Assembly: GCA_030704615.1 (NCBI GenBank)
Contig: CM060732.1
Coordinates: forward strand, 57,598,001-57,662,000
Reading direction: 5' to 3'
Source: Takakia lepidozioides
Taxonomy: Eukaryota; Plantae; Bryophyta
DNA length: 64,000 bases
Below the pieces are notes generated by a model that was not told where the DNA came from, searched no databases, and was given only the letters and a program-made list of their open reading frames with translations. Made by a program: the position numbers and the translations under genes. Of this stretch, positions 11,530-55,217 are shown in pieces (the stretch's first letter is position 1; each line of letters starts with the position of its first letter).

Positions 11530-11786
11530 CACTACTGCAAAAAGGGGGGTTTACGACGCCCACAGCCCGGCGCGCGCGGCACCATGCGACCCCACTTATT
11601 AGCGACACCAAGAGGGTCGCTATTCAGGGGTCGATATTATACCGACCTCTGAGGGGTCGCTATACTGAAATCCCAGCAAAATGAGATCCCAAAATGACTA
11701 AGTCATTGGGACAGACCCCCCTGGCGTCGCTAATACCGCGGGGTTGATTTCCTGTCGATTTTTCCTACGACGCCCCTGCCGACGAT
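11530..11786. mobile_element. CACTA (EnSpm) left terminus with GCGACC/GGTCGC subterminal repeats
   Basis: CACTACTGCAAAAAGGGG starts exactly where the copia ORF breaks off. Dense GCGAC/GTCGC motifs follow. The expected 3-bp TSD would be TCT. Confidence 0.85.
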
Positions 11787-12039
11787 GGGGGTTGCTATTC
11801 CATGAGCTCATGAGCAAGCATGGCTCACCCATGAGCTGCCAAGTAACACACTTCGAATTTCGGCAGATTTTTTTCGGGCCCAAAACGATAAAATAATCGA
11901 AAGTAGTTTAAGAAGAGAAGGTTTTCGAAGATTTCCGCGCTCATGCTGGAAGCACTCCGCTCATAAGTACTAGTATCCGCTCATGACTTGGAGCCCAAGC
12001 TCATGGACCGCTAGGCCAGGTCATAGAAAAACTGAATTC

Positions 12040-12515
12040 TGGCCAATAACGGCACCAAAATTACCCCAGAGGAAGGGACGCGAGCGGAATTAGGATCTGG
12101 GTTTGCAGACTCCGAAAACGCAATGGCGACCTATAACCGTGGATAGTACTGTTGCAGAAGTGCAGGATGGTTGGGTATAACGGCACCGTAATTGGGCACA
12201 GGAAAAGAAATAGCCGGCTGAAGGCTCGGGAGTGAAGGCCAATAATGGTGCCGAAATTAGGCTCCGCCAACCAAATACCCTGCTGAACGGAGTGCAGCCA
12301 ATAACGGCGCCGAAATTGGGGTCCGGAAACCAAATATTCGGCTGAAGCCACCGGAGTGCAGCCAATAACGGCACCGAAATTGGGGTCTGGAAACCAAATA
12401 CCCAGCTAAAGGCTCGGGAGTGCAACCAATAACGGCGTCGAAATTGGGCTCTGGAAACAAAATTCTCGGCTGAAGCTTCCGCAGTCCATCTAATAACGGC
12501 GCCAAAATTGGGCTC
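12040..12515. repeat. Subterminal array, ~7 copies of CCAATAACGGCGCCGAAATTGGG, mostly at ~60-65 bp period
   Basis: Copies near 12043, 12176, 12239, 12298, 12362, 12427, 12492. The same motif recurs at 23886 and 46487. Confidence 0.85.
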
Positions 12516-12742
12516 TGGAGAGCAAATACCCGCCTTACAGTGAGGGAGTTTTGCAAACTATCCTGAAACTGGTGCGGATTTGTCTAATAAAAGCACACAT
12601 GTCGGAGGAAATAGAAGTTATGCCGCATACGACATTGGCAGTGCAGCAATGATATATCCCTCTTCCGCCGGCCTTTGCTCTTCACTCTTCTCTTCTGTGC
12701 CCATCTCCTCCCTGCTCTGTGTTCTTGCTGTGTCGTGAGGCC

Positions 12743-13294
12743 ATGTCGTGCCCGAATCACATCTATCGACGCCAGACGGGAGTCATTGTCCTGAAAGCAG
12801 ACGACATCATTGTCTTCCTAGATGTTTACAGGGACGATCCTCGACTTGTCCAGCTGAGAGCAATGGAGTTTCTTCCAGGATTACACAATTCTCCTGGACC
12901 CCGGCTGGGGAGCAGGTGGTTCCTACACATGAAGGACCTGGACTTTCCGCTTGAGTGGGAGCCGAACAGATCACGCACGGCGTTGCTGTATCGCTGGAAC
13001 CGTTGCGAGTGGACGTATGATGAGTGCATAAGTGAAAACTTCACGCGTGGACGGACTGGCTCGGAAAGTGGGGACATTCTCTTCAGTTATGAGGATGAGG
13101 AGGAGGGGAACACAGGGCCCACTGTGAAAATGTCCTTCTACAAAGGGGGCGCTATCGATAAACACGACATCCTCGTTAGTTTCAACCGGGCGACAGAAAC
13201 CGCTGACATTTTGTTCAAATATCGGCACCCGGTCACTCAGGAGGTCCTTGAGAGGCCAGTTCGAGTTCCTTCTTCTTGGGCGAGGGGACCATAG
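12743..13294 (+). CDS. Intronless 183-aa hypothetical protein (Mutator cargo ORF-A), paralog of 35457-36083
   Basis: Uninterrupted ATG-TAG frame. Collinear similarity blocks with the ORF at 35457 (see findings). Confidence 0.65.
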   Translation: MSCPNHIYRRQTGVIVLKADDIIVFLDVYRDDPRLVQLRAMEFLPGLHNSPGPRLGSRWFLHMKDLDFPLEWEPNRSRTALLYRWNRCEWTYDECISENFTRGRTGSESGDILFSYEDEEEGNTGPTVKMSFYKGGAIDKHDILVSFNRATETADILFKYRHPVTQEVLERPVRVPSSWARGP

Positions 13295-13399
13295 GTCTTG
13301 CATGTTAGAGTAGACATGTTTTGACTCGCCGACACTCATGGCACATACATTTTGCTTCAGAATTCAAGTAGCTTCCCTATGCCATATGGGGAATATACA

Positions 13400-13483
13400 T
13401 GTCGTGCACCTAAGCATCGTGCCACACATACATCCCTATCCACCACACAATCTAAGCACACAATCCTAGAAAGCTATACCCAA
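13400..13483 (-). repeat. LTR segment A, outer copy (84 bp)
   Basis: Direct repeat of 13907-13991 with ~5 differences. Confidence 0.9.
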
Positions 13484-13991
13484 TGATAAGAGATGAGAAA
13501 TGAGAGAAATAGAAGACAATGAAAGCTCTCAAAGCATGAAGCAATCACATGAAGAACAAGCCCTAGTCCTTCCAAGTGAAATCCGCTCTATCACATAAAC
13601 TAAGTCAAGCCAAGGGCACCTTTGCTAAAGGAATCCACCCTACAAAGCCCTCAACACACTCCCTCTCAATACCTAGAGCTATGGAGGTGAGAGAAGCTCA
13701 TGGAGGGTCAACTACAAGAAGATGAGCCTCCTCAACACTCACAAGGGGAAAACCTATCTCCATGTCTCAAGTGAGGCTCGACACCTCACTTGGCATGTGA
13801 GACCAAATGAAGTCCCAACACACAAAATATAAATATAAATATTTAAAATGTCCTAGTTAACTAGAAGTAGGTAATTCTAGATAACCATGACTAAAACCAT
13901 GAGAGCTGTCGTGCACCTAAGCATCGTGCCACAACATACATCGTTGTCCACCACACAATCTAAGCACACAATCCTAGAAAGCTATACCACA
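13484..13991 (-). repeat. Complete 3' LTR (segment A 13907-13991 + GC + segment B 13484-13904)
   Basis: On minus: PPT GGGGGGCG-AT-TGTGG ... TTATCA. Confidence 0.85.
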
Positions 13992-14257
13992 ATCGCCCCC
14001 CTAGCTGGTGGTTAGGTCCTTCTAACTCTAGATAGCTACAAGATGTAATAGCCACAGCCGTACTAAGTCCTCTATCGCTGTCTCTATTGTACTCAAACTC
14101 TATAGACCAAGAGGCCGGGTACAAGAGCAACCCCATCGTTAGTTGCCGTCTTGCAATCTGTGAACTTGAGTCAGGATCTCGTGTGTTGGTCTCCTAGTAG
14201 CTTGGCCTTGCATTTCTTGTTAGCCTTCCATGGTTGTATCCACTCCCACTATCCAAT

Positions 14258-14392
14258 GCAATGCGGACATAACCAATCCCCATCAAGAACCATCTCAAGA
14301 GGTGGAGTCAAGCATCCCATATGCCAACCTCTAGAGCATTGATCACACACCAGCATGGTGGCTGTCCCTCTAGCAGACCCACACAACATGCA
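14258..14392 (-). CDS. PHD finger at the integrase C-terminus
   Basis: CMLC-x11-CDQC-x4-H-x2-C-x14-CPHC, a C4HC3 pattern with the conserved W before the last pair. Confidence 0.9.
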
Positions 14393-14399
14393 CCTCAAA

Positions 14400-15541
14400 C
14401 TTGCAGGTACCACTGCCAGGTTTGGGTCAACCCTTCCATCAACATTTGGAAGGTGACATGGCGCGCAATTACGCACATGGTCCTTCCAAATCATGCCATT
14501 CCAACCCTCCAAGATCAGGACTCCTGAGGGCAACACCTCTCGAACCCTCAAAATAGTACGTCATGCAGTCACATCCAAGGTCGTAGGAGCAGTCTGCTGC
14601 AGATAAACATAGTCACCAAGGTTGAATCTTCGAACCCCAGGACGATAGCCCCCACCACGTATGGTAGCATACCTCAACGTATCACGATGTTGTGCAATGG
14701 CAAGGTTCTCGAAAGCCATGGGCATGACTTTCTTGAACAACTCTGCACGCTGCTCACATGCACGTGCCCACACGTCCGGATCGTCAAGGTTAAGAACTGT
14801 AGCAGCTTCTCTGCGAATGGATGTAGGCAAATCCGGCTCTCAGCCAAAGAGAAGAAAGTATGTTGAGAAGGAGGCAAGTGATGCTTGCTTGCTGAACCTG
14901 TAGCCCATAGCTAACCAGGGTAACTGAAGGTCCCAATCTCCTAGGTGTCCCTTCTACAAGCCATACTTGCGCAAACCCCTCTTTACTGTCTGAACAACTC
15001 TCTCTGCCAAGCCATCGGCCTCAGGATGATCCCAAGAAGTGGTGCGGTGGTCTATCAAGGCCTTGTCACACAAAGCCTGAAACTCCCCCAAGAACTCTCT
15101 CCCTTGGTCCGTGAGTACCTCAGCTGGAGCACCGAATCGGCTAAGCACACAATCCAAGAATGCATACGCAGTTCCCTCACTAGCCTTATCAGGCAATGGA
15201 ACCAATTCAATCCACTTGGAGAAGTGCTCCACCATCACCAACACGTACTTGTTGTGGCGCATGGTCAGTGGCAACGGCCCTGCGAAGTCAAGACTCCACC
15301 TGTACCCCAATCCCATGATCGAAAGAGGGTGCAATTGTGGAGTAGGGGCGTTGAATGAAGCACGCACCCTGTCACACACCATGCACCTAGCCACAAATTG
15401 TTGCACCTCTGTGTGCATACCACGCCACCAATACTGCCCCTGCAGTAGACTATGAGTGCGTCGCACCCCAAAATGCCCCAACTCCTCATGGGCATGCCGC
15501 ACTAACCGCGCCCGCTGTGTTGGGTGAGGCACAATCCTCAC
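14400..15541 (-). pseudogene. Gypsy integrase (H2C2 + DDE core + SH3-like tail), with in-frame stops
   Basis: HEELGH..CMVC, SLDFAGP, LTDQGREF, GLAERVVQ. Stops at ~14954, ~14840 and ~14561. Confidence 0.9.
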
Positions 15542-15580
15542 TCGACTATCCTCCTACACTCGGAGCAGGTGTGTCCCCTC

Positions 15581-17257
15581 CTACTTGAACCTCTTGGCTC
15601 GTTGTAGGATCCGATCCCTCTCCTTGGCAGTCACAGTGGCTGCAGTGTCTCCAGTGCGGAGGTAGTCCAACACAACTGAATCCTCATGTATATCTTTGGC
15701 GCCACCTTGCTCATTGCTGGCCTCAGGGTCCTCAGACACTTGATCTACAGTCATCCCTGTTGCAGGTCCAACCTGGCCTTCCGCTGCCAAGATACACAGA
15801 AATGCAGATGCATACCATCCGGGCACCATCTCCTCGTCCGTCTCACCATGCCACCGAGCTCCAGTGTCATCCTGCTGGCCCGTGCATGGATTGCGACTCA
15901 ACCCATCTGCATTGCGATTGACCAAACCCGGTCGATGCACCACCTGAAAGTCATACTCTTGAAGGATGAGTGCCCACCGTGCAAGCTTCCCCGTAAGCTT
16001 GTCTGACTCCATCAACCACTTGAGTGGTTGGTGATCCGTAACAAGGGTGAAGAGATTGCCGTATAGATAGCACCTGAAGTGTGCCACGGCCCACACTGCA
16101 GCTAAGCATTCTCCCTCATATGAGCTATACTTAGACTCTGCAACGTTGTTCGAGCGGCTAGCATAAGCCACTACGAACTTTCTTCCCTCATCGTCCACCT
16201 GTGTGAGCACCGCTCCAAGCCCCAGCATGCTCCAATCTGTATGCAGCTGAAAAGGACGCCCCCTGATAGGTCGTCTCAAGATGGGCGCCGAGGTCAACCT
16301 CGCCTTGAGCTCTTGAAAAGCTTGTTCTTGCTCATCTTCCCACTGCCACTCCTGGTCCACCTTGGTCAGCTTGGTTAGAGCCTTTGCAATGGCACTAAAT
16401 CCCTTAACAAACCGTCTATAATAGTTTGCTAACCCCATGAAAGCTCGAACTCGGCTCACATCCGTGGGGCGTGGAACCTGTGCAATGGACTCTACCTTAG
16501 TCTATTGTACCCCCAATCCTCCAGGATATATCATGTGACCCAGATACTCAATCTGGTTGTGGAAAAACTTGCACTTTCCCGGATGTAACTTCAATCCGTG
16601 CGCCCTCAAGCGCTCAAATACCCCCTGAAGGTGTCTCTCATGCTCTTCCACCGTAGCACTAAAGATGATGATGTCATCTATGTAGCACCGAGCAAACTTC
16701 ACCCCTGCTAGAATCCTGTCCATGACTCTCTGAAACTCTGCCGGAGCGTTCTTAAGCCCAAATGGTAAGAACCGCCACTGGTATAGGCAATCATTCCCGT
16801 GCTCATTGATCCCCCAGAATGCCGTCTTTTGCTTATCTGCCTCCTTGATCGGCAACTGGTGATATCCGGATCGTAAATCCAACGTGCTAAAGACCTTCGC
16901 ATGCCCAATGGCATCAAAGATCTCCTTTGGTGTTGGCATGGCATACCTATCGGACTTGGTCTGACGATTTACAGGCCGGTAATCACCGCACATACGTCTC
17001 TCCGTCCAATTGCCAAAGACATCCTTCTTGGCTGGCATCACTGTGGCTGAAGCATACTCTCCCCCAGATAGCTCCACCAAACCAGCCTCCCAAAGGTCCT
17101 GAGTTCTCATCTGAATCAAGGACCTCTCCATGTCACTGTATCTATAGGGTCTCCGAAAGATTGGCGTGTCAGTAGCCAATTCAATGCGAATCTCTTGACC
17201 CTTCAGTGCTCCTAAGTCCTTCAAATTGAAGGCAAAGCAGTTCCTGTAAGCCCTCAA
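15581..17257 (-). pseudogene. Gypsy reverse transcriptase and RNase H
   Basis: RMCGDYRPVN, LDLRSGYHQ, LPFGLKNAP, YIDD, LHTDWS, EGECLA, TDHQPL, NADGLSR. One stop at 16502. Confidence 0.95.
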
Positions 17258-17699
17258 GAACCGCCGTATACGTCGTCTCTCTCCTCCGGTGACTATAGGT
17301 CCAACATCAGGCTCTCAGTTGTCCTCCGTGACTGCAACCTTGAGTCCAGCAGGCTTAGAGGTAGAAGACGCATCTCGTGGTTGCTATGCTGCAACCTCTT
17401 GAGTAGTGACCACTGCCTCCTCTGTCAGTGACAATGTCTCATCCTGCCCCATCATCCCATCCTTGAGGACCTCCTCAATCCGAGAAAAATCCCCAACCTG
17501 ATCCATCACCGCCGCCTTGGCTGCCAACTCCTTCTGAACCTCGAGCACCTCCCACGTGTGTCATGGATGCGGCCTGCACCTCGTGGTCCTCACCTGCTCG
17601 CCCCCACTCGCTGCATGTACCGTCTCGGTAGGCAGGGAGACCATGAAGGGAAGTGTACTCCGTACTCTGCGCTGCTCAGCCATAGCCAAGCTGATAATC

Positions 17700-18615
17700 C
17701 AGGTCAAACAATTGAGATCCATTGCTTGCCCCAACACCTGACGACGTGATGCCTCAGAAAGAGATGGCACCATCGTGGTACCTGTGGTAAAACCCATCGC
17801 CCGCTCGCGCTCGTCAGCATTGGGCTCCACTAATTGTTGCAACTGGCTATCCCGCAAGAGGCCAGGTCCACCATCCCGAAAAGCATGGGATCCTGGGAAG
17901 CTGAGCAGTGTAGGTAATGCTGCTCGTGGTTGACCCACCCTGTTGACCACTGCTAAAGGCGAACGGTCATCGTGTCTCACACGTTGAGACTGCCTCCCTG
18001 TGTCCAAAATGCTATCCACTGTGAGGTGTGCTGGCCGTTGCACCCCATCAAATGCACGCTTGAGCAGTGCGGGTGGCATCAAGTTAGTCCACCATAGCCG
18101 TGGACGATGAGCCCATGACCCTACTGCAGCTACATCCAGCAACACTGCTGACCCAAGCCACGACCGGACTTGATGCACACTGGCCATCACCCTGGCCCGA
18201 GAATCACCCATCAGTTGCACATTCTCCAAGATGTATGCTGGAGATACAGCTTGATGAAGCTGCAAGTGGCGCAAAATCCGCACCATCTCCCAAAACAGAC
18301 CCGTCCTCGAGTCTCGCAATCCATTGTCATGCCCGGCTGATGAATGCCCTTGGCAGGGCCAACTTGCCACTACCAGATCAATAGCGCCCCCAGCAACGGA
18401 ATGTCTGCTGGCAAGGCTTGTTGGTATCCACGAACTGCAGACACTGGCAATAAATCAGGGTACTGTTGTACCAACTGAGCAACATGGCGCAGTGAGACGC
18501 GTCGTGCAGTCTCATCCCTCTCCACATACAGGTAACGTCAAACTCGTACACCCGCCTGCAGTACTGCAGCCAATCCAGTGCTGATCCCGCCAAACAAGTC
18601 CAGAAGACATATGCC
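17700..18615 (-). pseudogene. DNMT3-like C5 cytosine DNA methyltransferase domain inside pol
   Basis: Manual translation gives motif I LDLFGGIS (18586-18600), II YVERD, IV DLVVASWPCQG, V DSRTGLF, VI YILENV, VIII AHRPRLWWTN, IX ERERAMGF and X LGQAMD. One stop at ~18538 and one frameshift near 18385. Confidence 0.92.
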
Positions 18616-18663
18616 TTCATCCGGGCACTGCCACACAAGAGGTGTGGTGTCCAATGGCGACAA

Positions 18664-20631
18664 CTAAGGTGGTCCTAGTGCAATCACCGCACTCTCCTCT
18701 TCTCCTGACGGTACGAAGGCCTCTACCCAAGCTTGTTGTACCCGTCCATCAGCAGCCTGCTGCAAATCCTTGCTCGTACCCCATAATGGAGTGTGAGCAA
18801 CCATGGCAGGCAACTCCGCCGTACCATGTATGTCATCCTGCTCTGCTGGAGGTGGCACATCCTCTGCATGGGCATTGCCTTCCAGCAACTCTCCAGGCCA
18901 ACTAACTGCAGCTGTAAAGGCGGCTAGTGTTGGCATCTTGCCCCGCTGGGCAGCCGCAATACCCCCAATGAATGTCACAGGGAGCTGTGCACAACGACCA
19001 TCCCCTGACTGCCATCCAGGCCTGTAGGATGCTGACTCCTCCCAAAAGTCCAGGATGAAGCCCATGGGATATAACACTGCCCCACCAACAATGACATCGT
19101 AAGAGACCGCGTCTGTCACAATGGCCTTGGCTCGCATCACTGAGCCATCTACAGGATGATCTGGTTGTAGTCCAATGGCCAACTCACGCCGTGTCATGCC
19201 CCGGTTGGCCATGTCTTGGTCAACACCCTGACCTCCGCGTCTTTGGCCATGTTGAGCTTGCCCTTGGCCTGCACCTCGTGCCCGACCACCTCGTCCTCTC
19301 TGGGCTGGTCCACCTCGCCTCCGGCCACCATTGTTCCCTTGGAACTGGCCTGGGCGCAACTCAGGGTGCAAGTCATAACACTGGGCATCTCCATGCCCAT
19401 ACTTGCCACAATGCCCACACTGCAACTGTGCAGGCTGTGCTTGTGCCGGCCTTCTGCCATTCTCTGGGGAATCTCTCTTGACATGGGGTCCTCCACATGT
19501 CCAACATATCACCCTTGGTTGTTGTTGGCCTGCAAAAGATGCCACGGACCTCTGCACTTGAGAACCCCTGTAAGCTCCATGGAACTTGGGTTGGGCAACC
19601 TTGCCCCCCTGACCACGCTGTTGGGCACTCCCTTGTACCTGTTGGCTGGCAGCTGCACCTCGTGCAGGCATGTCCTTGCCAAATCCAATGGTAACAACTC
19701 GCTCCTCCACCATGTTGAGCTCAATCCGCTCAGCCAGCAGAAACACATCCGCTAATGTGGGTTGGGCTGCTTGTAACAGGGTTGCATCCCGCACCCTTCT
19801 CTTGAGCTCCTTGTCCAAAATTCCATACCAGAACTGGACTGCCTGAGCTTCAGTAACCCCTTGGGTCACACTTATCAAGCGCCTCATACGAGTGTAGGCC
19901 TCTCGCAAGCTCTCACTGGATTTGCGCTGGAAGTCTTGCAAACTTCGCAGCTTCTATGTCCGTACACCTTGGTAGTTCCTCCGCAACTCCTGGAAGAACT
20001 CCACCACCGGGTTGAATCTAGGCACATGTGTTGTAATTGTGGCAGGAGGAGTAGTAGCACCTTTTGAACTGGTACCACCTGCAGAAGTGCCGGCACTACT
20101 TGTTCCACTACTAGCGCTTGTAGTTTGAGATGTTTGTGTAGCTGCTGGTGTCACCGCTGCCCTTGTGCCTCTAGTGATTGAGACATAGTTAGGTGACCAA
20201 TACTCTCGCCACTCCTCAATCTCCACCGCATATCCCCGCCTAAATTCATGGTAATCATCCATGGGCGGCCCCTCAAGGTGCTGGAATAGCCCCTTCCACG
20301 CCATAAAGGGCGTAAACAGTTGTGGATTGCACATTTGCTGCAAATCACACCAACTGTCAAACTCTTGTATAAAGTCATCAAGCTCGATGGTGCCCACAGC
20401 TCCAGAGTACCTACGTGGCCCCTTGGTAGCTCCATACATCTCCTCCATCGTGTCCCACAACAATGGCACGGAAATGACTTGCACCTTTGGCGAGAATCCT
20501 CCTGACTCCGAGTCTGAACCTTCCTTAGAAGACACTGAAGGTGAAAGTGGCCTAAACCGCACACCTTGTCTTGTGTACCCACTAGTATCGCTGGTGCTTG
20601 TACCGGCACTCCCCTCAGCAGCTGGTGGCAC
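18664..20631 (-). pseudogene. Gypsy gag (two Zn knuckles) and partial aspartic protease
   Basis: QDFQRKSSESLREAY (gag homology), CWTCGGPH and CGHCGKYGHGDAQC. Protease C-half YDVIVG is present, but no D[ST]G motif is visible. Stop at 19954. Confidence 0.85.
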
Positions 20632-21448
20632 CTCTGTGATGAAAACTCACAACCCAACCGGTTGTCAACCTGTCTCTAATCCCCACTTTCTACAAGGTAA
20701 CCGGGTAAAGAACCTGTTGCGGCTACTGGTTCAAGCAGGAATAATAGGTTTCTAACGTAGACATGTACCTGCACCTGCATCCACCGCAAGCACTCATATG
20801 ATCTGCCGGTCATCAACCCAGCCTCACCATAGAAGAAACACTGGTGGTCTTGCTGGTCATCACTCCAGCCTCACCACCGACAGCATACTCTAGGATTGGC
20901 CGGTGATCAAATCTGGACCAACCTCCTATGAAAACAAGCGCCCACACAAAGCTAACATGGCGCACAGTCGAGCATGCAGGTGTGGAGGGGATCCAAACAC
21001 AAGAAAATCAAGACAGCAACTCCCCCACACCAAAAACACTCCACAGTGTCGCTCCTGCAAGGATACCCCAGCCCAAACCCGGACTGACTCTTGCCTCCAC
21101 CTACGGAAAGGTTTTGGCCTACAGAGAGGGTGAAAGACTATGGAGAAGAGAAACTAAAGCAATTCCTAACCCCAGAATGCTCTCATCCCACCACTCTCCC
21201 TTCTGTCTCTATCCATTCGCTTGTATGGCCGTGGCAAATATCCTTCAATATCCCTCAATCAATCCTTCAAGAGCTCTTCAACATTGTCCACCAAAGCTCC
21301 TCAAAGGGTCCTCCAAGGACCCCAAAGATCCTCCAAACACTCCTCCAAGGACCCCAAAGATCCTCCAAATACTCCTCCAAGGGCCCTCAAATATCTTCCA
21401 AACAATCCTCCAAAGGCCCTTAAATTTCACTAAGTCCTTTCACTGTTG

Positions 21449-21845
21449 ATACCTTAACAGAGGTATAGTCTGAGGTTGCTAGGGTCCCTTATGTTGATGA
21501 TACCTTTACAGAGGTATAGTCTGAAAATGAGGGTTCTGTTTGGTATACTAACAGAGGTATAGTCTGAGCTGATTAGGGTCCACATATGGTGATACCTCAA
21601 CAGAGGTATAGTAAAAGGGACAAGCTTCTGTTTGGTATACTAACAGAGGTATAGTCTGAGCTGATTAGGGTTCACATATGGTGATACCTCAATAGATGTA
21701 TAGTAAAATGGACAAGCTCATATTTGGTATACTAACAGAGGTATAGTCTCACATTAGGGTTCACATATGGTGATACCTCAACAGAGGTATAGTCAAAGGG
21801 ACAAGCTCCTGTTTGGTATACTAACAGAGGTATAGTCTGAGCATA
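21449..21845. repeat. Tandem array of 9 ACAGAGGTATAGT-core units (~45 bp, dimeric ~90-bp period) in the gypsy leader
   Basis: Cores near 21458, 21508, 21551, 21600, 21643, 21690, 21735, 21781 and 21824. Confidence 0.9.
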
Positions 21846-23138: not shown

Positions 23139-23150
23139 ATCTTCTTGTAG
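23139..23150 (-). promoter_or_regulatory. Putative self-priming PBS (CTACAAGAAGAT)
   Basis: Abuts the 5' LTR end and lacks TGG. Perfect 12-nt complement of LTR positions 23379-23390. Confidence 0.7.
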
Positions 23151-23571
23151 TGATAAGAGATGAGAAATGAGAGAAGTAGAAGACAATGAAAGCTCTCAAA
23201 GCATGAAGCAATCACATGAATAACAAGCCCTAGTCCTTCCAAGTGAAATCCACTCTATCACATAAACTAAGTCAAGCCAAGGGCACCTTTGCTAAAGGAA
23301 TCCACCCTACAAAGCCCTCAACACACTCCCTCTCAATACCTAGAGCTATGGAGGTGAGCGAAGATCATGGAGGCTCAACTACAAGAAGATGAGCCTCCTC
23401 AACACTCACAAGGGGAAAACCTATCTCCATGTCTCAAGTGAGGCTCGACACCTCACTTGGCATGTGAGACCAAATGAAGTCCCAACACACAAAATATAAA
23501 TATAAATATCTAAAATGTCCTAGTTAACTAGAAGTAGGTAATTCTAGATAACCATGACTAAAACCATGACA
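23151..23571 (-). repeat. 5' LTR, segment B only (421 bp)
   Basis: ~98% identical to 13484-13904. Starts TGTCATGG on minus. Confidence 0.95.
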
Positions 23572-36083: not shown

Positions 36084-36621
36084 AGCGGTAAGGATCATTG
36101 TGGAGGGTGATTGGAGGGCACAGGCTCCGGGATATGGTAGTTCCACAGGTTTCTTATGCCGCAGTGGTATTTATGATGATGGAAGCTCGGAGTTGTCGTT
36201 GTACAAAATAAAAACTTGTGGTGTCCTGATGTTTTTATTTCGAGCGTGTACTCCGCAATCTCAATGCCTCGCTCCCGCAACACCCCAGCTGTTTATTGCT
36301 CCTTCCAGTCTCGGATATGTCTGCAATGGGGTTGGACTCATATATCACTAAATCCAACTATTAGATCTATCTTTTTATCCTTAGATGCAGGATGTGTGTG
36401 TGGAGACTCGGTATGAGGAAGCATACATGCTAAAAATTGTTTTACGAGATCAGATGTAAGACATCCATAAGGAGCTTTTGGGACGTTTTCTTCAAGAAAT
36501 GTTAACTACATTCCAAGTGAAAAGCACACAAATTAACATGTTAGAGGAAACAATGCCACAGTAGATTTTTTTTTTCACATTTCCTCGTTCGTGATAAGAG
36601 AAAATGTCGTATTTCCAGACA

Positions 36622-36890
36622 AATTATAGAGGTTGAGGAATTGTATTTTCTACTTTGCCTCAGGTGAAATGTTGTTTGTTCCCACATACATAGAGGCTAA
36701 AGTATTGTGCTTTCTACTTTGATTCGAGATGAAATGCAGCTTGTTCCCACATACAGTAGAGGCTAAAATATTGTGCTTTCTACTTTGCCTCGAGATGAAA
36801 TGCTGCTTGTTCCCACATACATAGAGGCTAAAGTATTGTACTTTCTACTTTGCTTCGAGGTGAAATGCTGTTTGTTCCCACATACAGCAA
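36622..36890. repeat. Four tandem ~67-bp units (GAGGCTAAAGTATTGT..TGTTCCCACATACA)
   Basis: Read directly. Confidence 0.85.
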
Positions 36891-38673
36891 ATGAGCAGAA
36901 AAACATATATAATATTGGGGTGCAACAGATCATGAGTCACATACCTGTATTGTAGGAACCTCAGCAAATGATAATGATACTATTTTGTCATGTACAAATG
37001 GAACATTTAGCAGTGTTTTTCTACAGATCCATTACAAATTTACACCTTCCAGAGATCCATGAAATTGAGGAATCATGCCACACTAAGAAAACATATCCAC
37101 ATGGCTGATTCTACTTCTTCCTAATGAACCCTCATGCTGTACAATCTTTCCAGTATATCGTATTGTCAAGGGTGTTTAAGAGTAATACATGTTCTCTCTC
37201 AAATACACATGCCTACTCAAAGGCCTACATCTATGTCCATACACAAATTGGCTACAGTCTTCCCTCATCTCTCTAAGATAAACTTTGCATTTGTGGCAAC
37301 ACTTCCTGTGGTCATACACAGTTGGAGAACTTGAATGTTGTCTCGAGACAACTCGATCAAATCACCATTCAATTTCGGGACATCTACCAATCTTACTCTC
37401 TCCTCCAAACCCAATTGTACGACTACATCTAGATAAGTGTTTCCTCATCCGACAAAACATTGAACTCTGTCTAGTTCCTTTCTCCTTTGGAATTCCCAAT
37501 GCTTTTGCCTCAACAAAATCAATGATGTCAGGCAGAACGTCAACTATTTTGTCAATGCCCATGACATGCATAGCTATGGTTTTTTTTGGCTAAAAATGAA
37601 AGGTGTTGAAAACCTATCACTCAAACAACCAGCACATATGAGATGACTGCATGGACCACCATATCCTTCTCCTGGGCTGCTGACCAAGCACTTGTTTTAA
37701 AAAAAGATTTGAAAACAACAATACATGTCTAAGATCCACAAAGATACAAAAATACAGAACTACCTCTTCAGTGTGAGGTGACATCTCTGGAGCGACTGTC
37801 CGAACCAGGCTTCACCTTCTTCACAGGTACATTATAATCCTCCTCGTCCCCGAACTTTTTTTCCTTGGAACCCGTGAACTTTTCTGTGTAGTGGATTCCA
37901 ATACAAAGCCAATCTGCTGCTTTAGCTGTTTTTTTCTTATTTCCAACGACTGCTCATTTTCCAGTATCGTTGATTCGAGGCCCAAGTGATGGAGAGCTTG
38001 AAATGTCAGTTAATGTGTCTTTATTTCCGAGGTCCTTTCTCACCAGGCTCTTCTTACCAATTGCTCCTTTTTTGTTCTCGTTGTGTTTATACCTCTTGAA
38101 TCTCTCGTACAACTCATGAACACCCCATCGCATGTTGATAGTGGTGCTACCATGAACAAAAGAAAACGCCATCAACTCTGATTCCCGCTCCTGAAGATAT
38201 TTCTTCACTCAATCGACTGCAGATTTCTAGTGTCGCATATGATTGGTGAAAAAACCTTTCACCATCACATCGTCCTTGTCCTCCTACCAAGAGCAAAAAC
38301 ACTGCAAATGAATGTTGTATACGCACCACTGGCGCGGATATATTTCCTTAGATATGCTCTGCCATATAGGTCATCATCTGCACTTTTGGGGGCTTCTTAA
38401 AAATCTGGTCGTAGCTAGGTGCTAGGAAAGGAGCCTGCCAGTGATTTAAGTCAAACTTCACTCACTAGAAATTTGATACAACATGATCAAAGAAAAGATC
38501 AAAGAAAGTACCTTATTAGGAGGAGCAGCCTTAGAGAGAGCCTTGCTTTTGGGAACCACTTCCTCTGGTAAAATGCGGCGGTCGTAGCTAGGTGCTAGGA
38601 AAGGAGCAGGCTTCGCAAATTTGTCAGTCAGTCATTTGGAACGTTCCAAATTGACACACTCAAGGCTTTTCAC

Positions 38674-38866
38674 TCAGGAGAGAATAACCTTCCGGTGCTG
38701 AAATATATTCATGCCAAGCATCAACAGATCCTCCAAGGTGAGCTCCATGAGGTCAGCGCCGTTCAAGTCCTCTTGTAGGATCTTTTCATAGTACTCGTTG
38801 CTACCTAGTAGCGAGCATAGATGCTCAGCTACCTTCCTCGCGTCCCAACTAGCAACCTGCATGTCA
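38674..38866 (-). pseudogene. SAM (sterile alpha motif) domain exon of a degraded multi-exon gene (~37.1-39.6 kb)
   Basis: WDARKVAEHLCSLLGSNEYYEKILQEDLNGADLMELTLEDLLMLGMNIFQHRKVIL fits the SAM consensus W..V..L...Y....I.G..LL.LT.EDL..LG...HR..IL. Confidence 0.75.
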
Positions 38867-39804
38867 ATTGACAATTGAGTCAGGTGGTGAGACAATCTTT
38901 CATATTCAAGCATCCATTCACTTCAGTCATACATGTGTTCCAATCAATCAGAAACATTGCCACAGATCTTTGGCAAAAAATATGAATTCATGCTGTGAAA
39001 TGTACCATGTTTTTGTCGAGCGGGCCCACACTAGCAAGAAAGTTCCTCATACGTGTGATATCCAGCAGGGCTGCTGGTTCTTCATTTTTAGCATAAATTT
39101 ATTTATATTTTTTATGATTTTAGTGAATGAAACATATGATGTAATAGACATAGTATCATAGTAACATAGTATCATTTTCATTTCATAATTTCTAATGTAC
39201 ATGTAAAATAATTAGATCTTCATTTCAAACATACTTATTTAAAATTTAATTCATAATATTAGATATGCACTGTCATGTGAGATTATATTGTATTATAATT
39301 TAAATTTAAATTATCAATAAACTATGATAATTTATTGATTCTGCAATATTATCGATATTTCAACATAAGGAACAACTTCAATTCGTTCAAGAAAGTGGTG
39401 GAGTTTGCATGAAAGGAAAAGTTTATCTTAGAGATTCTAATGGAGATTCCACGGATAATTTGTGACACAACAATTTCTGAATTAACTTATTGCAAAAAGG
39501 TAAACGAAAGAGAAGGGATCTCTAGCTCACCTCCGGAAGATGCACGGCCGAGGGCGAGCAGCTCAAAGTCGGAGCTTGGGAGATAAACAGCCGCGGCAAA
39601 AAGCAAGTGGCGCACGAAGCGCGCCTTCCTCCGAGCTCCCCCACGACGAGGTGACCTCCGCAGTTCAAATTCTACCTTGCAAGCTGAGTGAAGAGGAGAG
39701 GGAGAGGGAGCTGGAGAAGGAGGTCGCTTGACGATTTTGATTTTTTTAATTAATGACAGTAATCAAACAATTGAAATTAATAAAAGGTTAATCCCGTTGT
39801 TGTG

Positions 39805-40262
39805 TAGTTGCGACCCCCTGGGGGTCGGTTTTAGTGTAGCTGCATGCACCCATTTCTTGTCGCTTTCTATTAGCGACCCCCTGGAGGTCGCTTTTGGGGA
39901 CTTGGAAGTTTTAGAGCCGGATATTGCTAGCTGGTAGTGTGGGCACCCATTTCCCATCGCTTTCTAGAAGCGACCCCCTGGAGGTCGCTTCTGGGGACTT
40001 GGTAGTCTTAGAGCCCAGATCGGGCCTAATGTGGCACCCATTTCCCGTCCTTTTCTATATGCGACCCCCTGGAGGTCGCTTCTGGGGACTTAGTAGTTTT
40101 AGAGCCGGATGCTAGCTAGTGTGGGCACCCATTTCCCGTCCCTTTCTATATGTGACCCCCTGGAGGTCGCTTTCTGGGACTTGGTGGTTTTAGTACTGCC
40201 GGATGTTGTGGGCACCCATTTCCCGTCGCATGGTACCTGCGACCCCCAGGTGGTCGCTTCCT
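39805..40262. repeat. CACTA-type repeats GCGACCCCCTGGAGGTCGC, 6 copies at ~60-100 bp spacing, upstream of the CACTA transposase
   Basis: Read directly. Same core as 11530-11786 and 46662-47380. Confidence 0.85.
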
Positions 40263-40368
40263 GGGGGTTGGAGCTTTTTTGAAAGCATGATGTCTTGTTT
40301 CATAGAATTCATATATCAGTTGGATGTGCAATTTCAATAGTGAGGTTTTTGGATTTTTTTTATAGGTG

Positions 40369-43300
40369 ATGGTACGCTCACGGGTTCGGCCAATCACGGA
40401 GGATGATTATCGAAATGTAGTTCCACCCGACAAAGAACACCTCCAACAATGATGTCCGCATGTTTGATGTAATTCCATCTCTTTCAAGACGTCGTCGACG
40501 TAGGGATGAGCGGTTGGCGGACGTACCTGGAGAGCCTCACGTGATTCATGCACAAGGCCTCGAGCATCCCGTTCCACGTCCCAGCTTGCCACCTCGAGGT
40601 CCTAGGCCTCTTAGTCTAGAGCCACGAGGCCCTGATCGAGCCACTTTGGACAAACCCCCTCGGGTGGAGTGTTGGTGCGTGCGATGTTGGGCACGAGTGG
40701 CACCTGGAGGTGTTCCCGTGATGCGGCAGGATCATATTGTGGATGAACACTATCAGACATTGGGGATTGCCGATGCGGCAAGGGTGAGCCTTCTATAACC
40801 CATTGTTGTAACATTTTTTGTGCTGGTGTATAAGGACGTACGTTTGTTGTAAGTACTCGGATGTTTAAAAATGACTTGTAATTGATACTATAAAGTTACT
40901 GTGGTTAAATATATGAGTAAACAACAAACTAATTGTATGAATTTTATATTACGTGCAACCACGGAGAGCATGTGCGTGCTACCACGTGTCCCAAGTGCAA
41001 AAAATCTAGATACCGAGATGATGTTCAAGGAAAGAAGATCCCACGAAAGGTACATTTCTCTTATATTTTCTTTCCTGCCATTTATATTTATATACATATA
41101 TACATGTGTCCACCAACTAATATATCATTTTAGGGTGTAGGGTTTAAGAGGTTGTTCATTCCGATATTATTAGGGTATGCATATAGGTTATATGAATCCT
41201 TCAACTAATGTAGACTTTACAAAATATCTACATACAAACCTTTGCAAATATATACCCCTCTCTTACGTACAATATGTGGATCCAAATGACAGAAAGTAAA
41301 TATTGATATATTTGTTGTGTTTGTTGGGAAGGTTAGAAAATGCATTATTTTCCAGTCATCCCGCACTTGAAAGCACAATTTCGGAGTCCATCATTTGCCC
41401 AACTCATGAAGTGGCATGCGGAGCATCGGAGCCCTCCCGGAAAGATGTGCGGCCCTCACGATTCGCCGGCATGGAAATACACCGAGGAACAATGGCCTTT
41501 TTAGAAGGACGATCCAAGACATGTTTGGCTCGGCTTCTCCGCGGATGGTGTAAATCCACATTCAGTCTAGGCAAGTAGTCATTCCACATGGTCCGTGACT
41601 TCGGTTAACTACAACATCCCTACTTATCTTGCTATCAAGAAGGGTCATATCATGTTGGCTGCCATTTGCCAGGTGAAGAACACAACTCTGTTTTGTTGCT
41701 TTAGGATGTACGTGGTAGTACAATGTCGGATATATATGGAACTAAGAATATTATTTGTTCTGTTTGAATTTGAAACGATCTTATATATATTACAAATAAT
41801 TTGTGTTGTAGGGAAAAAACAACTTGCGAATATGGATGTGTATCTGCGTCCATTGGTTGACGAACTCAATATATTATGGAATGGAGTTCCAGCTTTTGAT
41901 GCATCGGCACCCACTGGCCAACGTTCTTTTCTCTTGCGAGGGCTTTTGCTATGGACAATGCATGACTATCCATGTACATTTTAATTTGATATTACCTATA
42001 ATATATATATTCTACTGTATATCATGTGTTTGTATGTGCTTTTCATGATTTTTCTTTACCAATTCATGTTTTTGTTCGGTTCACTGAAATTATACGAGGC
42101 GACGAATGTTAAATCCCAACTAAATTCATGGTTTTGTGTAGGGCTTTCAGTTTGTTCGGGACTAAGCACAAAGGGGTACGCAGCATGTTCATGTTGTGGG
42201 GCGGATAACCTTGATGCAAAGCATTCGAAGAACGTCGCGAAAATGATTTATCCCAACTACAGGAAATTTCTTCCTCTCAACCATCCATGGAGAACAAGAG
42301 GCAAGAAATTATTTGATGGGACTGTGGAGAGGAGACCTCCACCCGTGCGTCCTCTTGGGTCATTTTGGAAAGCCCGGTGGCAAGAGGTGCTGGATAAAAA
42401 ACGCCGGCTCAAGAGGTGTGGCATGTCCCGGCTCTCAATCTTCTACGAGTTGCCTTATTGGGAGGTACAAGTCCGAAATGCATTGGACCATACATATTTC
42501 ATTGAATGTCATGACATATTCATATGAAATTGCACCGAGTTCAGGTTTTATGACAAATTATATGGAAATTTCATGATGCGCAGGGTCTGAAATTCCGGCA
42601 CCTCCTTGATCTCATGCATATTGAGAAGAATGTGTGCTCATCACTTATTCGTGTACTGACAAACTTAACCGGGGGGGGGAGAAACGCGGCGGTGATTCCC
42701 TTGGTGTGAGGCGAGAGCTCCAAGCCCAAAACTGTATGCCACGACTATGGCTTGAAGCTGATGGTGTGGACGTGAACAATGCTCCCAAGTGTAAGTATAG
42801 GGCGCCAACTTGGACTTGGACAAAGGAGGAATACAAGCAAGTGCGGACCACAATACGAGCTATCCGGACCCCGACCGGGTATGGCGCATCTCTACGCAAC
42901 AAATTTGAGGATGACACCACTATCCATGGTTTGAAGTCTGATGACTACCACAACATTTTGCAAGACATCCCCATTGCAATACGAGGGACACTCCATGAAG
43001 GCATTCGAAAAGCCGTCTATCGACTTGCTGATTTATTCCATTGGCTTTGCACAAAAGAGATGGACAAGGCGGATTTTCCACGAATGAAGGAGGAGGCGGC
43101 CATGGTCTTGTGTATGTTGGAGATGCATCTTCCCCCTAATTGCTTTGACATCCAAGTGCATTTGGTAGTGCACTTGGTGGAAGAGGCGGAGATTGCCGGA
43201 CCGGTCCATGCTCGGTGGATGTACTTTCTAGAGTGTTACATGAAGGAGGTCAAGGCACACGTGCGGCAAAAGGCACATCCCGAGGGTAGCATGGCGGAGG

Positions 43301-44688
43301 GGTACACATTGCAAGAGGCTATGGTGTTATGTACGGAGTACATGAGAAGGGTGGACAAAGAGGCCCCTCCAATGTGGAAGGAAGAGGATAATGTGCGGAA
43401 CAAGGACATGGTTTTGCCCAAAAAAACAAGGAGGGTGAAACTATCGAACACCGAGGTGGAGCAAGCACATGACTTTGTATTGAAGAACACCCCTTGCATA
43501 GTGGAGTGGGAGGCAAGACATGTGGATGAGAATGCACGGCGGTTGGAAGCAAGTACAATTTGGAGACAAACACGTGCGAGGGAATTGCGAGCCTCACGAG
43601 GACGGCGCGGATCCAGGAGCTCGGCCCCATTGGGGATGCGTGATTTGCCCACGGAGATGCAGCCATTGAAATCACTTCGCCATTGGCTCCGGAGTGGAGT
43701 TGAGGCTGCGATGGCCGCGGGCGAGGTGGTGCCGCCTTTAGTGCAAGAGCTTGCGAGAGCGCCATCTCAATATGCCATTTCATTCTCCTCTAATTGGATT
43801 CATGGTCGTCATTTCCACATCCGTTCTTTTGACATGCGTCGGAAGACCACATTTGACTCCGGTTTGTGTGCAACATATTGGCAAGACTCCGTGTCAAGCA
43901 CAAGGGACATTCGACCTGAGAGAAGCAAGCTTGAATATATTGGGGAGCTTGATGTCATTTTGCAACTCGAGTATGATCGCTATCGCCCTATTTTTTTCAA
44001 GGGGAGGTGGTTCCAACCCCACATTGCAGGCCCAAATGCAACCCTCTTGCCTGACGAGTGTGGCTTCATGCGGGTCAACACTTCCAGGATCACGCCCTCC
44101 ACACGCATCTCCAATGAACCATTTGCATGGCCGAAGGACATGGAACAAGTCTTTTTTTCCAAAGACAAGACTAGATCGAGCAATTGGAAGGTGGTTGTGT
44201 ATGCTAGGCCAAGAGGGAGATGCATTTACCATGGCGAGGGATCAAACCGTTGGGGTGGTGATGAGGCCGAAGTGGCCGAAGCGACCGAGGTGGACGAGGT
44301 AGCCGATGCGGATGCGGATGCGGGAGATGATGCTTCGTGGATAGAGGCAATTGAAGACACTGCCTTGAACAATGTTGGAGGAGATGAAGTGGTTGATGCG
44401 AATATTGCACCGGAGGAGGAGGAGGACAAAGACGAGGATGACGATGAGGATAATGACCAGGATGACGATGACGATGACGATGACAATGAGGATGTACAAG
44501 GAAAGGAAGATCCTATTGTGCCGCCTCCTATTGACCCTCCGGTCGTGCAAGAGCCATATGAATATATGGATGATGATTCGGCTTCTGATCATGACTCTCT
44601 TAAGAAGGTCAATATAGTGACTTCGATGAGGACAATAGACAGGAGTTGGAGCTTGATGAGGAAGATGATGTCCCTCCTGATGGCATGA
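40369..44688 (+). pseudogene. CACTA/EnSpm transposase (Transposase_21 + DUF4218 + DUF4216-like, acidic tail), spliced, with stops
   Basis: CPKCKKSRY..KIPRK, DSPAWK..DPRHVWLGFSADGVNP, MDVYLRPLVDEL, WTMHDYP, DLMHIEKNV, GLKSDDYH, GPVHARWMY..E, HPEGSMAEGY, DECGF and NEPF..QVFF. Start position approximate. Confidence 0.92.
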
Positions 44689-45164
44689 TGTAATACCCAC
44701 GCGGCACATTGTTACAAGGCGAACAGGGCAACTACTTCGGAACCAAATTGACCAACCAAGATGATGTCTCCCACCATGATGTACAACAATTTGCCAATAT
44801 GACAAGAACAATTGCAAATTGTTGTATATCATAGTGATAGACATCTTTTTGATTAGTCAATATGGTTTTGAAGTACTTGCACTCCAATTTCACCGGCCTC
44901 CATTTATCCCCATACTGTGAGGGGATGCACATGTTTATGATGACATGTGCTAGTACGACTATTAGGGCTGGCACCGAGCTATTTGCATCCTGTAAGTTCT
45001 CGTGAGATGCTTGGGACCTCCAGATACAGCATGAGGAGGATGTGTGTGACAGAACTTGGGTCGCTTTGAGACCGGGATCGCGTAGAATGGCATTGTAGAT
45101 ATTCTCCTGATGCACTTTGGATACATTAAGATGGAGTGGCTCTTAGTTACTCCGGCTTAGGCCG

Positions 45165-45169
<5 letters not shown>

Positions 45170-45196
<27 letters not shown>
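45170..45196. repeat. (CT)n microsatellite
   Basis: Read directly. Confidence 0.9.
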
Positions 45197-46661
45197 CAGC
45201 ATGAAATACAAGTGAAGTATACGGCAGAGATCTCCCAAAGCGTAGCAGACATGTAGGGCTGTAGCAAAAGATGTAAGTGGAGTCTTCCAGGGTCCAATTT
45301 TGTTCCTTCGCAGCCTGGGAAAGTCTTAGTGAAGTAGCAATGAGTAACAGTAAATATGCTGTCTTTCAAGCAACATATAAAATGCATAACCTCTGTCAGC
45401 ATTTCTCCAAATGATGAGGGAGATTGTGGATCAAAACTGTAGGAGGCTGCACTGGATTCATTCCACCCACCCAGCACCACTGACTGCCATGTTGCGCGTT
45501 GCTGGACTAAGTGGAGAGAGATGAGGGGTGGGAGGAGCAATGATGTTGTACTCAGAGGTATCTATTTTCTCGAGGAAGAAACACAACCTCTATGCAGGTT
45601 CTTGCAATTCCAACCTCTGAACTCTGCATGGATTCCCAACTTCCATTAGTGCTGGAATTTGATGACTGATATGGTCTATTTTTACTTCTTTTTTTTCTTT
45701 TTTTTTGGTCTATTTTGAATTTCTAAAAAAACAATGTGTACCTCCATTCTAATTGGTAATCCAAATTTCCGTAAAAGAGAAGTAGCTGGTGGCAAGCCAA
45801 TAACAATAACACATTGCACCACCAACAATTCTGCATGCTTGTATATCCATTGTAAAATGTGCACTATCAGGCATTAAGTAACGCATTTGCGGTTTGAAAG
45901 AACAAAGACATCCACGCCTGTAGGATTTCACCATCTTCAGTCTTTGTCGGTCTTACTCTTTTCCGGTGGGTCTCGGCAGCTCGAGTCTCATGATGAACTA
46001 CGTTCTCGTCAGGATCCTTCACGGGTAATGTGTCATTCCGCTTGTTTTGTGGGCCATAACAACAATGGAACCTAGACAAAACTTTTCGATTGATACTTTG
46101 TACATACTTGTGATAACTTAACAATATAGTATGATAGACATCTATATGAACTATGATAGACAATGCAAACACAATGAATAACAAAGACGTCGAAACGTCG
46201 TAGTTGGAAAGGGCAATGAGTTCAGGTATAAACTGGGATAAATAGGTTGAACCCCAAGCAAGTGCGAGCTGATTCGATGATACTATGCTCGTACCTCAAA
46301 CCCTTGTTGATAATTTCGGCAATTTTCTGTCATGTCAATGTGGGCTTGATGTTGAGTTGAATGGGGTTTGCAAGTTGAACTGTCGTCTGACCCTAAATAT
46401 ATTACCTTGTCAGCACAATGGCTTGTGAGGGCTACAATTTTGTGTCTCTTTCCTGTCCTGCACAATGTTTTACAGTCGTGACGTGGAATAACGGCGCCGA
46501 AATACCTCATTCCGCATCCTGGACCAGGAGAAACAGACCCTATTATCGAGGTATGAGGACATAACACCGTCAATAAAGGCACAAAAATTCAAATTCCGCG
46601 GATGTCCGCTCATGAGCTCATAGGCTCATGGGCTCATGAAATAGTAAACCTCACTGACGAT

Positions 46662-51986: not shown

Positions 51987-55217
<3,231 letters not shown>

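Follow-up and report, generated by a model that had tools for sequence, protein, structure and literature searches.

Organization and boundaries of the element

We analyzed a 64,000-nucleotide stretch of the genome of the bryophyte Takakia lepidozioides (assembly GCA_030704615.1, contig CM060732.1, positions 57,598,001 to 57,662,000 of the forward strand; hereafter the window), which harbors a giant DNA transposon very probably belonging to the Mutator superfamily. The element carries a transposase pseudogene, a divergently transcribed ParB-like accessory pseudogene, two small intact open reading frames (ORF1 and ORF2) and numerous copies of a short palindrome (Table 1). Its boundaries fall at 11787 and 46652, giving a span of 34,866 bp, of which about 20 kb correspond to two later insertions and 14,620 bp to the family core. 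A preliminary description of this DNA had estimated the element at ~25 kb once its nested gypsy is removed; this value has to be lowered because a 10,067-bp CACTA-derived block is foreign as well. The 14.6-kb core is still large for a Mutator.

The left end and the reverse complement of the right end agree at 24 of 29 bases, and three CATGAGC units are found at each end of the element, in inverted arrangement. The nine-mers abutting the ends, GCCGACGAT on the left and ACTGACGAT on the right, are identical at 7/9 positions. The chance of at least 7/9 identities is 0.0013 for one given nine-mer pair, a scan of 11700-11900 versus 46500-46800 returned a single duplication register, and none of the nine-mers of the flanking CACTA repeats (0/941) reaches 7/9.

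Depth was computed from public contigs aligned to the window, X1 and X5 being separate studies; X1, which shows 0 differences in single-copy parts, may be the source of the window itself. As summed contig depth is not equal to copy number, only steps and equal levels are interpreted. At the left end, the X1 depth increases from 524 (position 11761) to 8,339 (11908), and the X5 depth from 3.1 to 49.4 between the same positions. At the right end, X1 drops from 164,057 (46520) to 448 (46894) and X5 from 42.7 to 0, and one X1 contig departs at exactly 46652 into a different flank. These steps at both ends point to a repeated family having these ends. Within the element, the X5 depth is 49-56 in the left arm, 42-60 in the transposase, 43-66 in the ParB-like gene and 43-56 in the right arm, versus 0-3 outside, a common level which argues for the joint amplification of both arms and both genes. 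The imperfect terminal inverted repeats of ~30 bp and the 9-bp target site duplication (7/9) initially proposed are hence upheld by the agreement of the ends, the unique register and the depth steps on both sides.

The insertion target was the end of a CACTA element, whose GCGACCCC repeats resume at 46669-47360 and whose left end shows a low depth (790-815 in X1). This context opens an alternative, in which the two ends would stem from separate insertions, with the body of the host CACTA represented by the CACTA genes between them. The presence of a CACTA TnpD and of the GCGACCCC repeat inside the span, together with the imperfect duplication, speaks for this scenario, which we nevertheless regard as very improbable, given that contigs of two studies connect 36245 to 46329 over the block, that both arms are equally deep in X5 and that the duplication register is unique. 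The structure is almost certainly one real, single element, and its description as a self-contained multi-gene Mutator-type DNA transposon was borne out.

A GCM-like/DDE/SWIM transposase related to IS256/Mutator enzymes

The window transposase gene has no Pfam match, and sister contigs have an extra base at one of its two frameshifts. A search with the transposase core retrieved 17 unnamed homologs with 37-45% identity, in which the two catalytic aspartates, the histidine of the CxxH motif and the GCM-like Cys/His set are invariant. The catalytic glutamate is seen in the window and in the homologs P0014 and P0015. P0014 (1,058 amino acids) is alignable along the entire window gene and matches the Pfam SWIM profile PF04434 (E 6.8e-5). 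Its predicted structure is of mediocre overall quality (predicted local distance difference test, pLDDT, 50.8) and finds its best match in ISCth4 of the IS256/Mutator family (Foldseek E 6.8e-5; Z 8.4 and root-mean-square deviation, rmsd, 6.2 over 190 residues), above both Hermes (Z 5.0-5.7) and RAG1 (Z 5.9), while its N-terminal part superimposes on the GCM domain (1odh) with a Z of 5.3 and an rmsd of 4.8 over 130 of 157 residues. These fold matches and the PF04434 match of a full-length homolog corroborate the initial assignment of a GCM-like/DDE/SWIM transposase.

Mutator-like elements (MULEs) are described as generating target site duplications of 8-11 bp (PMC6446971), as having ends of 14-500 bp or none, and as encoding a transposase with a DDE core, a CxxH motif, a helical insertion, a WRKY-GCM1-type N-terminal domain and a SWIM domain (PMC5225508, PMC6446971, PMC1702500). 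The 9-bp duplication, known here from one insertion only, lies within this range and, taken with the transposase features, endows the element with the characters of a Mutator. The likeness to Mutator/IS256 elements thus extends to the DDE core with CxxH and helical insertion, the WRKY-GCM1-type domain, the SWIM domain, the duplication and the end length, as these are presented in the same articles; the differences are a full GCM-type double-zinc domain, a protein of ~1,050-1,200 amino acids, a length of 14.6 kb and the lack of any Pfam MULE/Mutator match.

A palindrome confined to the non-coding parts of the core

The 16-bp palindrome ATTTCGGCGCCGAAAT, with at most three mismatches allowed, has 33 matches in the window versus 0.16 expected (shuffle mean). 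All of them (33/33) are located in the core and none in the other 49,380 bases, with 0 in the nested gypsy and 0 in the 10-kb block. By the gene model, 33/33 are also non-coding, though coding sequence occupies 8,375 of the 14,620 bp of the core. The largest set, an array of 18 copies between the divergent genes, likely serves as a two-way promoter, judging from its position, and five copies lie within four introns of the ParB-like gene; further copies are borne by the tandem repeats and by the right arm (Table 1). The motif reported to be shared from end to end therefore exists but does not run through the whole span, being absent from both insertions. With the motifs masked, the CpG ratio of the core is 0.75, versus 0.40-0.55 in the retroelements and 0.77 in the CACTA gene; as the core equals the CACTA gene, this ratio is not evidence of protection.

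The accessory gene encodes a predicted ParB-fold protein with a partial methyltransferase tail

The accessory gene is divergent from the transposase, and its exons are collinear with those of its relatives. Sister contigs are free of several of its lesions, and positions with T in the window and C in the sister, or A in the window and G in the sister, outnumber the reverse by 224 to 77 in X1 (~3:1), an asymmetry as expected for a methylated, decaying copy. At 50% clustering, 336 relatives of the first exon were retrieved, among which are proteins from a fern, Adiantum, and from a liverwort, Riccia. For one relative, P0018, an AlphaFold2 (AF2) model of good quality was available (pLDDT 88.6): the VIA rows with Z of at least 5 were all ParB/Srx proteins (8/8; KorB with Z 7.8 and rmsd 2.5 over 90 residues), and the top Foldseek rows were Noc, ParB, PadC and Srx. 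Sequence searches against the Protein Data Bank (PDB) were uninformative. An arginine follows the G-N/H-H motif in 85 of the 104 homologs in which the motif was found (150 examined) and is replaced by methionine in the window copy. On the basis of these models, the assignment of the accessory protein as ParB-like appears well supported. Two longer relatives have fungal DUF3723 as their nearest Atlas clusters by language-model features (0.95 and 0.97, with 189 and 198 of 256 shared), and no match to the DUF3723 hidden Markov model (PF12520) was found in any protein scanned.

A Riccia homolog of 1,207 amino acids matches the N4/N6 methyltransferase profile PF01555 (E 5.2e-5, with Riccia homologs reaching 9.4e-6, just under the curated cut-off) over profile positions 165-218, which comprise motif I, involved in S-adenosylmethionine binding. 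The corresponding region aligns with the window exon 33426-33689 (z 4.6; 0/300 shuffles reach this score), an exon that by itself has no database match. The Riccia catalytic region (940-1050) had no match within 29900-34700 whichever frame was considered (best z 1.1), and the catalytic motif IV (D/N/S-P-P-Y/F/W) is absent, the homologs reading DLPT or DFPI. Of the divergent ParB/methyltransferase-like gene initially described, the ParB-like part is thus substantiated by the fold matches, whereas the methyltransferase is present only in part, with motif I but not the catalytic region. The methyltransferase assignment is valid at the level of the family but applies only in part to the window copy, whose tail looks truncated, that of the liverwort homolog being complete. 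One X9 contig exits the window at 33346 and continues for 429 letters, a weak hint that other copies may hold the missing half. Separately, three Riccia sorocarpa proteins of this family (P0178, P0180 and P0181) bear the UniRef name 'Trimethylguanosine synthase', where Pfam indicates an N4/N6 DNA methylase.

The palindrome follows the ParB-like gene in distant relatives

From a metagenome scan, 80 of 154 confirmed loci were kept, 58 of them distinct, and at least 4 kb of sequence was available upstream of the transposase match in 11/58. A ParB-family gene was found in 4/11 of these long loci, with a divergent orientation as in the window in 3/4 and with exons collinear with the window gene in all four; the transposase cores of these loci are 40-42% identical to that of the window. 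The repeats found in these loci correspond to the same palindrome core in a decayed state. A pattern derived from the window core alone and allowing C-to-T decay occurs 10, 3, 2 and 0 times in the ParB loci and 0 times in the seven others (1 when L073 is taken for L074), while a relaxed pattern occurs 10, 8, 8 and 4 times versus 0-1 in the seven ParB-less loci. The motif being present with the ParB gene and nearly absent without it, the palindrome tracks the ParB gene and not the transposase. Owing to the decay of their copies, the metagenome loci gave no result with the perfect-palindrome finder, and among viral contigs 63 pattern matches yielded no relative.

These loci allow two further explanations of the palindrome to be weighed. 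The first holds that it is a site for the GCM-like domain of the transposase, for self-activation or subterminal binding, with the ParB-like gene as a passenger. It would account for the position of the densest array right upstream of the transposase, and a 2026 preprint describes a Mutator transposase that alone activates cognate copies. We find it quite unlikely, considering that 7/7 long ParB-less transposase loci have 0-1 copies, three of them within the clade of the ParB carriers, that the ends have inverted CATGAGC repeats of their own, and that in locus L044 the array follows the ParB gene, beside which it lies at 7 kb from the transposase. In this locus the ParB-family gene and array (L044:2099-4165) are on the same strand as the transposase and 6-7 kb apart from it, and possibly represent a separate or inverted copy.

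The second explanation assigns to the accessory protein the main job of writing N4-methylcytosine or N6-methyladenine on the palindromes as a self mark, an idea also put forward in what is described of the Ectocarpus element Sola1-1. The near-threshold PF01555 matches of the Riccia homologs and the collinear motif-I exon of the window are in its favor; the motif IV region of Riccia, however, reads DLPT and is not of the DPPY type, the window copy has no detectable match or room for it, and the four relatives keep their arrays yet show no motif-I exon. This role therefore seems improbable to us as the principal one.

The two remaining reading frames of the core do not share this distribution. 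No homolog of ORF1 was found among proteins of 100-321 amino acids and none of ORF2, for which no database-wide search was made; neither has a match in the four ParB loci, and the scan of 133 reading frames gave no Pfam match on any core reading frame. Their presentation as orphan paralogs is not sustained, the best BLASTP E-value between them being 0.18 and 138 and 160 of 1000 shuffles reaching the local and global scores, respectively. ORF2 stands at about one third of the element depth in X5 (11.6-17.4 versus 43-64), and is therefore likely either restricted to a subfamily or, in other copies, more divergent. The notion of a conserved accessory toolkit consequently applies to the ParB-like gene and the palindrome, which recur in distant relatives, but not to ORF1 and ORF2, for which no homolog was found, ORF2 also standing below the depth of the element. 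We also observed that contigs of X1, X8 and X9 join ORF2 (35552) to the right arm (46449) in inverted orientation, with a depth of 101.5 in X8, revealing a rearranged derivative of the family; that 35282-35330 is a 50-bp fragment of a different, very abundant repeat, flanked on either side by many loose ends in each of the four runs; and that two datasets, presumed to be RNA, contribute short, partly unspliced pieces.

A candidate self-recognition system

Taken as a whole, the reading in which this locus represents a decayed member of a 14.6-kb multi-copy Mutator family whose ParB-fold protein binds its own palindrome and thereby opposes host silencing is, in our view, about evenly poised between being right and wrong, its parts deserving different degrees of confidence. 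By analogy with other members of the superfamily, the GCM/DDE/SWIM transposase would bind the short ends, likely at the CATGAGC sub-repeats, and excise the element in a cut-and-paste manner that creates the 9-bp duplications; the broken window copy would need an intact partner to move. The ParB-like protein probably binds the palindrome, bacterial ParB being described as binding palindromic sites (bioRxiv 10.1101/2025.02.11.637652), and would do so as a dimer, most densely at the two-way promoter and within the introns of its own gene. It may in this way mark all family copies in trans, as VANC does for VANDAL, and keep the family transcribed in the face of host methylation, as suggested by how the sites cluster at this promoter and within introns. 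Provided that binding occurs, anti-silencing or activation is a reasonably likely purpose. The methyltransferase tail would represent an optional extra, which may modify the DNA to which the protein is bound.

Alternatively, the ParB-like protein may bind the palindrome and aid transposition, loading, spreading or bridging along the 15-kb element so as to pair the short ends or hold the excised copy, as a MURB-like helper. Such a role would suit the ParB fold, the distribution of sites over the whole core, both arms included, the very short and imperfect ends, and the look-alike DUF3723 of the giant Starships, for which a translocase-like role is suggested in the preprints cited below. It fits less well with the location of 18/33 sites between the gene starts and of only one in the right arm, with the direct, not inverted, arrangement of the arm copies, and with the existence of ParB-less relatives; we judge it unlikely.

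Several observations weigh against a ParB-like protein that recognizes the palindrome and protects a Mutator from silencing. Regarding the proteins, no Pfam MULE/Mutator profile was matched by any of 13 proteins (0/13) at E-values up to 1, the Foldseek E-values for ParB were 0.017 at best, no Pfam ParB match was found in 59 family members, and the search for a helix-turn-helix returned only Atlas HTH_ParB structure rows with TM <0.5, none being demonstrated; the ParB/Srx fold is also found in enzymes (sulfiredoxin, SbnI and a serine kinase). Regarding the palindrome, its densest array adjoins the transposase start, the 5' border of the intron that holds the copy at 33359 is uncertain, and 19/27 mismatches at its centre are CpG transitions typical of methylation decay, so that in these copies protection, if there was any, failed or lapsed. 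Regarding the relatives, the relaxed pattern was composed after the ParB loci had been seen; in the clade comparison of the transposases (32 rows, cut-off of 150 aligned residues, none removed), the four ParB loci fall in one clade, three of them being ~80% identical in DNA, and hence represent with the window two lineages and not five; L018, L059 and L067 lack the ParB gene within this same clade, which makes the gene dispensable or lost; CpG observed/expected ratios are 0.25-0.29; and no intact ends were found, as a scan of 12 loci for terminal inverted repeats with duplication gave only AT-rich chance pairs and close examination of L021 gave no ends.

Comparison with known giant transposons

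The preliminary description had proposed the VANDAL elements for comparison, and this proved apt: as reported for VANDAL and its VANC proteins (PMC5735166), we see a multi-gene Mutator with a family-specific short motif massed in non-coding tandem repeats and introns. VANC motifs are described there as 8-9 bp, non-palindromic and fast-changing between families, unlike the 14-16 bp palindrome of the window, which is kept across 40% protein identity, and no VANC-like Pfam domain was matched. By Pfam and fold tests the accessory gene shows no relationship to VANC, whose sequences were not compared directly.

The accessory gene has closer precedents among the giant transposons of algae, in their ParB(-methyltransferase) genes. 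The 21.5-kb Sola1-1_Ec32 of Ectocarpus carries a gene for a 1104-amino-acid ParB-like and N4C/N6A methyltransferase protein on the strand opposite to the transposase (PMC12477816). Going by its description and not by sequence, this giant DNA transposon resembles ours in the placement of that gene, in the self-binding proposed for it, and in the frequency of nested insertions and dead transposases; it differs in being a Sola and not a Mutator and in coming from a brown alga, and the string 'palindrom' occurs nowhere in the main text of that article. The Plavaka elements of Bostrychia, of 17-19 kb, are described with a ParB gene, PAG3, next to inverted-repeat arrays and with an N6-adenine methylase (bioRxiv 10.1101/2025.02.11.637652), and the same preprint mentions homologs in giant Mutators of Chondrus crispus. 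The parallels concern the element size, the ParB gene beside arrays, the methylase and a PAG2/PAG3 cassette that shifts among superfamilies, Mutator included. According to that account, by contrast, separate genes encode a fusion of ParB with a 2-oxoglutarate (2OG) oxygenase and a fusion of the methylase with a SET domain, the transposase is of the EnSpm type and the hosts are red algae. As for DUF3723, it is presented as a conserved passenger, of unassigned function, of the giant fungal Starships (bioRxiv 10.1101/2021.12.13.472469, 10.1101/2025.02.28.640899); it is the nearest feature neighbour of two of our homologs and likewise a passenger of giant elements. The differences are that no PF12520 match was found here in the proteins scanned and that Starships move, as stated in these preprints, by a tyrosine recombinase.

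ParB-bearing giant transposons of red and brown algae are thus already published, and the novelty here lies in a Mutator lineage from land plants and in a specific site associated with the ParB gene. The literature consulted, which leaves subscription journals and Repbase outside its scope, contained no ParB-bearing giant transposon from land plants and no link between ParB and DUF3723. We tentatively suggest, as a rather doubtful generalization, that a ParB-derived protein and its palindrome form a portable parS-like module taken up by Mutator, Sola, Plavaka and Starship elements to coat their own DNA and escape silencing, with the fungal DUF3723 in the same family and the palindrome as the first specific site tied to it. 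If the DUF3723 link were true, it would provide a hypothesis for an unexplained core gene of Starships. With a concrete protein, a 16-bp site conserved over a long distance, natural comparisons with and without the gene, and tractable models in the plant group, the proposal is directly testable. Annotation pipelines that require a Pfam transposase match and a length <12 kb, such as those described in PMC12973397, miss such elements, whose genes enter databases as hypothetical proteins or as 'trimethylguanosine synthase'.

Later insertions and surroundings

The nested gypsy announced in the preliminary description was confirmed by its Pfam domains, its TACA duplication and its depth. It matches PF00145 (C5 DNA methylase), PF00628 (PHD finger), RVT_1 and rve, and its depth is about 10 times that of the element. 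Among the matches listed, no contig joins 13399 to 23579 across it; its exclusion from the core rests on the TACA duplication, the depth and one X6 contig that halts at 13394 with 275 letters left over. Its C5 DNA methylase lies at 17564-18454, and its end repeats are permuted, with 87-bp/419-bp/87-bp units on the left and the 419-bp unit only on the right. Gypsy elements with a C5 DNA methylase and a PHD finger are reportedly known from Klebsormidium.

The 10,067-bp block is specific to this copy: it is skipped by four contigs, two from X1 and two from X5, in which 36245 is joined to 46329, and much of it stands at the single-copy level in X1 with 0 differences. An intact nested CACTA was considered and rejected, since no CACTA...TAGTG ends were found near 36251 or 46317 and no duplication at the block borders, and since a LINE-derived piece sits at the junction. 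This piece, 46279-46317, consists of 39 bases identical to 56540-56578 in the endonuclease region of a LINE (long interspersed nuclear element), and is likely filler from break repair. Given the missing CACTA ends and these LINE-identical bases, the block was likely copied in during break repair, in a manner that may be compared with Pack-MULE capture. In the interior of the block, the SAM-domain gene and TnpD are divergent around a near-palindromic GCGACCCC...GGTCGC array, a layout that parallels that of the Mutator; the motif of this array matches the one in the host CACTA end. A repeat pair of unassigned nature, 82% identical, links 45606-45848 in the block to 47951-48179 outside.

Table 1. 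Coordinates of the features of the element and of its insertion site in the window
Feature	Position	Strand	Remarks
Host CACTA, left end and subterminal repeats (outside the transposon)	11530..11777	+	CACTAC terminus at 11530; GCGACCCC repeats
Target site duplication, left copy GCCGACGAT	11778-11786	.	9 bp
Left terminal inverted repeat with three CATGAGC sub-repeats	11787..11836	+	29-bp repeat; CATGAGC at 11801, 11809 and 11830
Tandem repeats of ~64 bp	12042..12550	.	each with an asymmetric form of the palindrome; families D10, D19, D20; matches 12301-12493
ORF1	12743..13294	+	183 amino acids, intact; X5 depth level equal to transposase
Nested gypsy (later insertion)	13400..23578	-	includes one copy of the 4-bp duplication TACA
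Transposase pseudogene	24158..27782	-	GCM-like zinc domain, DDE, SWIM; two frameshifts, one stop
Transposase catalytic residues	D26217 / D26013 / CxxH 25929-25918 / E25536	-	
Transposase intron (one)	25597-25670	-	
Array of 18 palindromes between the divergent genes	28030..29630	.	motif scan
ParB-like accessory pseudogene	30143..34677	+	~8 introns; several stops, at least 3 frameshifts; ParB/Srx-fold domain, helical region, low-complexity linker, methyltransferase motif-I exon (33426-33689)
Tandem repeats lying downstream of the ParB-like gene, 3 palindromes	34869..35110	.	family D18
ORF2	35457..36083	+	208 amino acids, intact
CACTA-derived block, copy-specific	36251..46317	.	10,067 bp; Pfam PF00536, PF02992, PF13960
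SAM-domain gene in block	exon 38677-38922	-	PF00536
GCGACCCC repeats in block	39790-40290		
CACTA TnpD transposase in block	41300-44688		PF02992, PF13960
LINE-derived piece, right junction of block	46279-46317		39 bp
Right arm	46318..46652	+	one palindrome (46488); terminal inverted repeat 46624-46652
Target site duplication, right copy ACTGACGAT	46653-46661	.	9 bp

The host CACTA is itself nested in a copia element (9360-11550), and the window was found to contain neither the right end of this CACTA nor the 5' part of the copia. In the right part of the window there are a foldback element whose inverted arms are long (49374-50961), a host gene for an aldo-keto reductase (51987-55214), a LINE that is broken (56351-59151) and pieces of gypsy gag, long terminal repeat and protease (59961-63493).

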